The notes beneath the pieces were generated by a model, which saw only the letters and a list, made by a program, of their open reading frames with translations, did not search any database and had not been told where the DNA came from. Shown here in pieces: positions 28,878 through 29,783 of a stretch of DNA of 50,849 nucleotides; positions within the stretch are counted from its first letter, which is position 1; each line of letters opens with the position of its first letter. The translations under genes were made by a program, and so were the position numbers. The DNA comes from Escherichia phage BabyEgg, in the sequence record PP925846.1; one strand, written 5' to 3'.

Positions 28878-29189
28878 ATGGCTGAATATGGAATCTCAAC
28901 ATGGGATGCAAACGGAAAATATAATAACTACGGCATCAAGCCATCAGTTGTTATTGGAATGTTCTCACTTTCTACAGGGCAGGTTTCTGGTAGTTATACA
29001 TTTAACGTGCCTTCTGGATACAAGCTATCATACGCAATATCCCTTGATGAAGGGAGCAGCGCCGGAGATAGGAGAAAAATCACAATAGCAGGCAATACAG
29101 TTACGATCTCAAATGCTGGATCATCAATAGGCGCTGACATATGGCCTACAACAAAATGCGATGTTATTGTTTTTTTGGAGACTGAATAA
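28878..29189 (+). CDS. hypothetical protein downstream of J (103 aa)
   Basis: RBS ggagg before ATG at 28878; N-terminus MAEYGIS resembles that of the next gene. Confidence 0.45.
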   Translation: MAEYGISTWDANGKYNNYGIKPSVVIGMFSLSTGQVSGSYTFNVPSGYKLSYAISLDEGSSAGDRRKITIAGNTVTISNAGSSIGADIWPTTKCDVIVFLETE

Positions 29190-29783
29190 ATGGCGCAATA
29201 CGGAGCAAGTTTAAAATTATCAAATGGGAATGTTTTTGTTACTCCTGATGCAAGTCCTTTGTGTCTTTATAGGCGCATGACGCTAACGTCAAATTACCAA
29301 TCAGTGACAATTCCATCCGGTAAGCCTGTCATGTATTTTTCACGTGACGCTGACGGAATATCAATGGCGTTTAGAAATTCAGCAACGGAATTGTTAGTGG
29401 GGCCAGGTAATGGAGTTGGTTACATTTTTACTATATTTACACCTTCTCTTCCTAAGTATGGGATGGGTATCTGGAATGCAGAAGGGCAATTGATATTGAC
29501 CAACGAATCAAGGATTTTAACAGATCTTGTTAAGGTTGGCACGCCTGGAAATCAAGGAGGAATATATATAGATCAGACTCTTACAGGTTCTTATGCAATT
29601 GCTCCTCAATTGCTTGGCGCTATTGTAGGGATGGGGTCTGCATCAATTTATGCGGCAACAAAATATAACGGAAGCACGACAAGAATTTATGGTAAGGCAG
29701 CAGGTCAGCCGCCAGGCGCTCAAGGTTATATTAATCATGGAAATATAATAACAGCAATCAAGACTGATATTTACGACCAATAA
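29190..29783 (+). CDS. hypothetical protein downstream of J (197 aa)
   Basis: N-terminus MAQYGAS; Gly-rich. Confidence 0.5.
   Translation: MAQYGASLKLSNGNVFVTPDASPLCLYRRMTLTSNYQSVTIPSGKPVMYFSRDADGISMAFRNSATELLVGPGNGVGYIFTIFTPSLPKYGMGIWNAEGQLILTNESRILTDLVKVGTPGNQGGIYIDQTLTGSYAIAPQLLGAIVGMGSASIYAATKYNGSTTRIYGKAAGQPPGAQGYINHGNIITAIKTDIYDQ

Follow-up and report, generated by a model that had tools for sequence, protein, structure and literature searches.

Genetic organization of the locus

The window, i.e. the whole stretch of DNA that was analysed, comprises 50,849 nucleotides of Escherichia phage BabyEgg (sequence record PP925846.1), a T1-like phage of the genus Warwickvirus (Drexlerviridae). 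The first-pass annotation had placed two genes at 28878-29783 between a gpJ-like gene and cor; this was confirmed, and both genes, here named ORF-A and ORF-B, are located on the + strand. The features of the locus are:

25256-28834, + strand: gpJ-like central tail fibre / tip attachment protein, 1192 aa (phrog_31, Pfam)
28842-28859: GC-rich hairpin between J and ORF-A, GCGGGGC-GTTT-GCCCCGC, perfect 7-bp stem
28878-29189, + strand: ORF-A, 103 aa, putative small tail-tip subunit; homologue of T1 gp32 / N15 gp22
29190-29783, + strand: ORF-B, 197 aa, putative FhuA-binding receptor-binding protein (RBP); homologue of T1 gp31 / N15 gp23
29786-29805: bidirectional intrinsic terminator, common to the convergent ORF-B and cor transcripts
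29807-30040, − strand: cor, superinfection-exclusion lipoprotein acting on FhuA, lipobox LTGC

The J gene was assigned by phrog_31 ('central tail fiber J', E=0) and by the Pfam families FNIII-A_GpJ, Phage-tail_3 and Phage_Tail_Tip, and cor by phrog_1119 (E 5e-30) and NCBIfam NF047972 ('phage exclusion lipoprotein Cor', 70.9 bits at a cut-off of 31). ORF-A is preceded by GGAGG, starts with the ATG at 28878 and ends with the TAA at 29187-29189, which is directly abutted by the ATG of ORF-B at 29190, the frame of which closes at 29783. The TTG at 28851, from which the longest open reading frame starts, is not the true start of ORF-A, as the homologues all start with MAEYG. With J ending at 28834 and ORF-A starting at 28878, the pair is located immediately downstream of the gpJ homologue, as in an RBP locus, and an exclusion lipoprotein gene lies alongside (cor, 29807-30040, − strand); Cor is the cognate partner of the ORF-A/ORF-B module, though separately transcribed. 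The segment 28700-30100 shows 98.9% nucleotide identity with Escherichia phage PeterMerian (Bas05). Beyond cor, about 500 bp of AT-rich non-coding DNA (30041-30551) extend to an exonuclease VIII-like gene and contain promoter-like sites, e.g. at 30495-30522 (+ strand); this segment probably controls divergent early transcription, including that of cor.

Transcription signals and translational coupling

On the + strand no terminator was found between J and ORF-A, and one was found after ORF-B. The hairpin at 28842-28859 carries a terminator-like T-run on the − strand only and is therefore probably no stop for rightward late transcription; it might serve attenuation or block antisense transcripts from the cor side. 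In T1, terminators are annotated at the sites equivalent to 28842-28859 and 29786-29805.

The junction between the ORF-A stop and the ORF-B start was compared in 81 related loci, 69 of which have the overlap TAATG/TGATG, while the gap is 0 in eight and +1 in four; in lambdoid phages J abuts ORF-A as well. This conserved translational coupling argues for co-production at a fixed ratio, as expected of partners in a complex. The sequence GAA TAA ATG at 29187-29192 places ORF-A and ORF-B of BabyEgg in the same frame with a single TAA between them. Programmed read-through from ORF-A into ORF-B was rejected, since a common frame occurs in just 8 of the 81 related loci and the genes overlap in 69: the shared frame is not conserved, so that read-through is no family feature, and it is the translational coupling that is kept. 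The shared frame looks incidental here.

Sequence families and distribution

Both genes had been called unknown in the first-pass annotation, a description that is outdated. Residues 3-101 of ORF-A match phrog_557 (E 5.7e-31, full-length) and residues 1-196 of ORF-B match phrog_425 (E 2.7e-44, full-length), i.e. the families of T1 gp32/gp31 (ST32/ST31) and N15 gp22/gp23, which were discussed in papers from 2021 to 2026. Pfam and NCBIfam gave no family for ORF-A or ORF-B, with one sub-threshold prealbumin-like Pfam hint for ORF-A, and no match of ORF-A to tail-fibre assembly chaperones of the lambda Tfa or T4 gp38 type was found in Pfam, NCBIfam or PHROGs. By tblastn, 347 phage records were found to contain ORF-A and 348 to contain ORF-B, with the same taxon profile (Escherichia 177, Klebsiella 111, lambdoid 'Enterobacteria' phages 22); both are present in enterobacterial chromosomes, too.

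The GenBank records MG065636-MG065688 ('Campylobacter phage A14a, A13a, A136, A16a ...') contain a T1-like locus of 81-86% nucleotide identity, with the FhuA-type pair and cor, and are labelled as Campylobacter jejuni phages; these host labels look doubtful, and the records may represent coliphage contaminants. In Klebsiella Webervirus phages the pair directly follows J and cor is absent downstream, its place being taken by a lateral fibre gene; in Klebsiella phage Roth47 (stretch L167, 4495-5468), for example, an ORF-A-like protein of 102 aa and an ORF-B-like protein of 219 aa are encoded after J. The occurrence of a Roth47-type pair without cor implies that the pair is not functionally tied to cor.

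Relationship between ORF-A and ORF-B

The first-pass annotation had described a paralogous pair and had quoted the shared N-termini, which are exact (MAEYGIS... and MAQYGAS...), and pairwise alignment had been proposed as a check. BLASTP of ORF-A against ORF-B returned short motif matches only (A1-14/B87-100, E 0.012; A1-13/B1-13, E 0.09) and no full-length similarity, and hhalign of the whole profiles gave a probability of 19% over 18 columns. When ORF-B was split into its domains, the ORF-A family was aligned with the ORF-B N-domain over 71 columns (A1-82/B1-75) with a probability of 63%, an E-value of 6.9e-5 and a score of 29.0. In the controls, 24 column shuffles scored 11.6 ± 2.9 (maximum 17.3) and the reversed alignment 13.2, and after deletion of the N-terminal motif from both partners the score was still 23.0 (E 4e-4). 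The order of strands in the ORF-A model (23-31, 38-41, 48-56, 65-71, 74-81 and 94-102) is paralleled by that in the N-terminal part of the ORF-B model (25-31, 37-40, 47-53, 60-64, 67-70 and 75-81). Homology of the ORF-B C-domain (87-197) to ORF-A or to the ORF-B N-domain beyond a 13-residue motif was unsupported by profile alignment, this motif being the sole part that the C-domain and ORF-A have in common. A search of 1.84 billion representative proteins with the ORF-A family profile retrieved about 60 stand-alone proteins of about 100 aa as well as large repeat-rich proteins, and no ORF-B-type protein. ORF-A and the N-terminal domain of ORF-B are thus most likely remote paralogues, so that the claim of paralogy stands in a distant and partial form and not in that of close paralogues.

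The short motif is present in three copies in the pair, namely at the N-terminus of ORF-A, at the N-terminus of ORF-B and at residues 87-101 of ORF-B, where the third copy (LPKYGMGIWNAEGQ) opens the C-domain, and it is conserved in both families; in ORF-A, residues G5, D10, G13 and N16-P22 are invariant. The pattern G-x3-[WFY]-[DN]-x2-G occurs three times in the 26,081 residues of the window ORFs, with two of the three in ORF-A and ORF-B, a count that is illustrative only because the pattern was picked post hoc.

Protein properties and predicted folds

The Gly/Ser/Thr-rich character noted previously is moderate, with S 13.6%, G 11.7% and T 8.7% in ORF-A and G 12.7%, T 8.6% and S 7.6% in ORF-B. 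No signal peptide, lipobox or hydrophobic or transmembrane segment was found in either protein, the maximum Kyte-Doolittle hydropathy over 19 residues being 0.94 for ORF-A and 1.33 for ORF-B; the names 'outer membrane' and 'membrane associated' under which the proteins are found in databases are therefore misleading.

Structure prediction, which had also been suggested as a check, yielded an ORF-A model (pLDDT 81) with a beta-sandwich at residues 23-102 and no helices, in which residues 1-22, the most conserved part, have the lowest model confidence. ORF-B was modelled with higher confidence (pLDDT 90.6, pTM 0.86) as an all-beta protein without helices, consisting of an ORF-A-like N-domain (1-86) and a C-domain (87-197). 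Both models match the LptD-binding RBP of phage Oekolampad/Bas18 (PDB 9RPT chain C), with 69 aligned residues for ORF-A and 133 for ORF-B. For ORF-B this was the best structural match, so that the predicted fold resembles that of a demonstrated RBP, with the reservation that beta-sandwich folds recur widely. The Oekolampad RBP inserts into its receptor according to cryo-EM (entry released in December 2025), and its gene is located at the same locus beside an exclusion lipoprotein of its own. A Foldseek search against viral models returned 13 uncharacterised proteins of 200-310 aa and one of 555 aa from diverse phages (TM 0.44-0.6).

A relationship to the Oekolampad RBP at the level of sequence was rejected: hmmsearch of the ORF-A and ORF-B profiles against the PDB gave no match to 9RPT, hhalign to the RBP gave probabilities of ≤4%, and hhalign of the thirds of the RBP with ORF-A and with the N- and C-domains of ORF-B gave nothing significant. 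An internal three-fold repeat of the RBP was not demonstrable by sequence. For T5 pb5, neither sequence nor fold similarity to the module was found.

The C-terminus of J and the hairpin motif

The last approximately 30 residues of J (TISVRDANGQLRVQIGRLTGTW; 28745-28831) are hairpin-like and resemble the N-terminal motif of ORF-A and ORF-B. This terminal hairpin, TISVRDANGxLRVQIG, is kept throughout the FhuA-type loci examined, lambdoid as well as T1-like, whereas in BtuB-, YncD- and LptD-type phages it is different; its conservation by receptor type suggests co-adaptation of the fibre end and the module. The short hairpin that resembles the gpJ end is likely a docking element by which the module would attach to the fibre. 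This role is suggested by three observations: no other part of ORF-A is as well conserved as the motif or was modelled with as little confidence; motif-like hairpins were recognised by eye at residues 1-25, 113-142 and 206-234 of the Oekolampad RBP, segments that were modelled and for which cryo-EM density is missing; and the last hairpin of J resembles the motif. If the docking motif is real, host-range engineering by receptor swapping in small siphoviruses should move ORF-A and ORF-B jointly and keep or co-transfer the last approximately 35 residues of J.

In a metagenomic fragment (P0176, 139 aa) the C-terminus of J (...RVQVGRLTG) continues in frame via CSD into the ORF-A-type sequence MAYGIQTWDASGKPNNYGIKP; the join may be a genuine J-A fusion, or else an error was made in sequencing or assembly.

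Modules for other receptors

The BtuB-type locus of Bas04 (FritzSarasin) encodes a 92-aa protein starting with MAQYGYAIYDDRG and a 204-aa protein starting with MYGMSIKKPDGS, the latter with GSHGIAFYNAHGEM near residue 100. Compared with ORF-A/ORF-B by hhalign, this pair (bas04_0024/0023) reached probabilities of 89% and 94%. In vB_EcoS-95, likewise a Warwickvirus, ORF84 corresponds to ORF-B (96%) and ORF85 to ORF-A (94%), again as hhalign probabilities; its J is 89% identical to the J analysed here over all 1192 residues, and in the alignment about one third of the last approximately 36 residues differ. In the YncD-type locus of IsaakIselin, a 101-aa protein starting with MPGLQAWDASGNL and a 217-aa protein, in which GYLDVFDASGNLVW is located around residue 100, are encoded, for which nothing beyond the motif was detectable in comparison with ORF-A/ORF-B. 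A third gene of the IsaakIselin locus (stretch L166, 5099-5431, − strand) encodes a protein of 110 aa with a cleavable-looking signal peptide and no lipobox Cys (MKKIMLAMALVAPLNAMA), which may be a periplasmic non-lipoprotein exclusion factor.

A small and a large protein, three fixed motif positions and a secreted exclusion factor are thus common to at least the FhuA and BtuB types, and the YncD type probably has this small-plus-large, three-motif architecture, too. The four RBP families were called unrelated in a 2026 preprint, which holds for overall sequence and not for architecture or fold.

A further-reaching idea, put forward tentatively and with the odds against it, is that the pair corresponds to the single-chain LptD-type RBP divided over two proteins. 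The tip would then be built as a pseudo-trimeric cone from three 'hairpin + beta-domain' modules, of which ORF-A would supply one and ORF-B the other two. The three hairpins would imitate the last gpJ hairpin and each dock on one chain of the J trimer; the docking part would be conserved and the receptor-facing loops exchanged, and the FhuA, BtuB, YncD and LptD modules would be one diverged superfamily. This idea draws on the combined length (300 vs 321 aa), on the aligned residue counts of 69 and 133, read as one and two modules, on the motif spacing estimated by eye (about 103 and 86 in ORF-A plus ORF-B vs about 119 and 92 in the Oekolampad RBP) and on the motif positions recurring in all four locus types. 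If true, it would explain how a receptor binder present in a single copy fits onto a three-fold fibre.

Probable role in FhuA recognition

The locus downstream of gpJ was described as the 'bona fide RBP locus' by Maffei et al. (2021), with the allele predicting the receptor, and this match in small siphoviruses was confirmed at larger scale for FhuA, BtuB, LptD and YncD alleles (2026 preprint). The terminal receptor of Bas05 (PeterMerian) is FhuA according to the BASEL table, and at 98.9% nucleotide identity the allele of BabyEgg is shared with this FhuA-dependent phage. In the virion of vB_EcoS-95, LC-MS detected the post-J proteins ORF84 and ORF85, of 22.0 kDa (2 peptides) and 10.0 kDa (3 peptides, 55% coverage), and did not detect the lipoprotein; absence from virions, which the first-pass annotation had named as evidence against its proposal, is therefore not what is found for the homologous module. 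For Roth93 (Klebsiella Webervirus), published AlphaFold models gave an ipTM of 0.75 for FhuA-gp54 and of 0.45 for FhuA-gp53; judged by the gene order in Roth47, gp54 is most likely the ORF-B homologue. An AlphaFold FhuA model was also published for Sew11. In the T1 cryo-EM study the distal fibre was unresolved and gp31/gp32 were not listed, and the Sfin-1 virion proteome, which does not list the LptD-type ORF downstream of J (957 bp), is uninformative.

The best explanation, to which we assign a probability of roughly 80%, is that the two genes encode soluble virion proteins of all-beta fold, located on the distal end of the gpJ fibre, where they form a putative FhuA-specific receptor-binding module. 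Gene anatomy, family membership, remote homology, fold match, coupling and receptor correlation were computed here, and FhuA dependence of a near-identical phage and virion presence of homologues were taken from the literature. The two proteins would be made with the late tail genes and be added to the trimeric gpJ-like fibre at its distal end, with ORF-B and its two beta domains as the presumed main FhuA-binding subunit and ORF-A as a one-domain co-assembled tip subunit or adaptor, supplied in fixed proportion via translational coupling; Cor, encoded on the other strand, would afterwards block FhuA inside the infected cell. The earlier proposal of a receptor-binding accessory or host-range role is supported by the FhuA dependence of Bas05, the RBP locus, the virion homologues and the Roth93 models.

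Two other functions were weighed. The names in PHROG and RefSeq, the conserved linkage to cor in FhuA-dependent phages and the suggestion of an exclusion role in the KanT1 paper (PMC13164509) would fit membrane or outer-membrane proteins acting with Cor in superinfection exclusion. This is very improbable, as the proteins have no signal peptide, lipobox or hydrophobic segment and their models are all-beta and soluble, the pair lies on the tail-gene strand with a terminator only past ORF-B and cor convergent, Klebsiella phage Roth47 has the pair without cor, the homologues but not the lipoprotein were found in vB_EcoS-95 virions, and the structural comparison gave a demonstrated RBP as best match. 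The KanT1 paper reported no structural matches for the two proteins (PMC13164509); the 9RPT entry now supplies one. Alternatively, gpJ itself could bind FhuA, as lambda J binds LamB, with ORF-A and ORF-B being mere chaperones of fibre-tip assembly that have no function in the virion. The J-like protein was treated as the RBP of T1-like phages by Lewis et al. (2023), TolC-, LamB- and NupG-specific phages of these groups use C-terminal domains of J, and ORF-A resembles many fibre chaperones in being small and translationally coupled. However, the J of vB_EcoS-95, a BtuB-type phage, is 89% identical and the module downstream of it is exchanged, and such a near-constant J combined with a different module and receptor argues against J as the FhuA binder. 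Moreover, both homologues are present in vB_EcoS-95 virions, the small one with 55% coverage, no Pfam match to tail-fibre assembly families was found, and the fold of ORF-B is common with a protein that binds its receptor directly by cryo-EM. Binding by gpJ is therefore considered decidedly unlikely, though less so than the exclusion role.

The similarity between ORF-A and ORF-B could also be due to chance or convergence, in which case unrelated beta-sandwich proteins would merely begin with a beta-hairpin of a common type. The BLASTP E-values, no better than 0.012-0.09 over 13-14 residues, the probabilities of 19% for the whole profiles and only 63% for the N-domain, and the failure of the ORF-A profile to retrieve ORF-B-type proteins from 1.84 billion sequences would be in line with this. 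It is nevertheless unlikely, given that the 24 shuffles reached 17.3 at most, against a score of 29.0 with and 23.0 without the motif, that the strand order is parallel in both models, that both match the same RBP chain, and that the small-plus-large layout with the same three motif positions recurs in BtuB- and YncD-type loci. ORF-A as a remote paralogue of the ORF-B N-domain is therefore the preferred reading. The module is accordingly described as a two-subunit binder of distantly related parts, the modelled fold of which matches a proven LptD binder.

Comparison with known systems

T1 belongs to the founding phages of molecular genetics, and its receptor gene product FhuA was originally known as 'tonA'. 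The closest known system is the 'extended cor cassette' of T1, N15 and HK022, which has the same families in the order J-A-B adjacent to cor. The ORF-A and ORF-B proteins are 48.5% and about 40% identical, respectively, to their T1 counterparts; the allele here is that of Warwickvirus/Bas05, and ORF-B is 197 aa long compared with about 224-229. Lambdoid phages have cor on the same strand as the pair, and their J, ORF-A and ORF-B genes directly adjoin one another, whereas cor is convergent here. Every host phage listed for the cassette is FhuA-dependent, and FhuA-dependent BASEL phages are included (PMC13164509).

The BtuB-type pairs of Bas04 and vB_EcoS-95 resemble the present module in having a small and a large protein, the same three motif positions and an adjacent lipoprotein. 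They differ in that the module is inverted (lipoprotein, small and large protein on the − strand), the lipoprotein is not Cor and the receptor is BtuB. The Oekolampad RBP and Rtp44 (with the lipoprotein Rtp45) are single-chain proteins (321 aa, compared with 103 + 197 aa), are encoded on the opposite strand and bind LptDE, in contrast to the + strand, FhuA-type module here. With T5 pb5 and Llp the shared logic is that of a dedicated, non-covalent FhuA-binding RBP at the end of the central fibre, next to which a small lipoprotein, Llp in T5 and Cor here, is encoded, Llp blocking FhuA from the periplasmic side.

The locus represents a known kind, namely the RBP locus with its FhuA allele, and is near-identical to that of Bas05; as a standard FhuA-type module it constitutes no new kind of system. 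The present analysis adds that the module is linked by fold to the LptD binder and by sequence to the BtuB-type pairs; it also corrects the annotation and puts forward the docking-motif hypothesis, and the modest new point is a module architecture that is common across receptor types.
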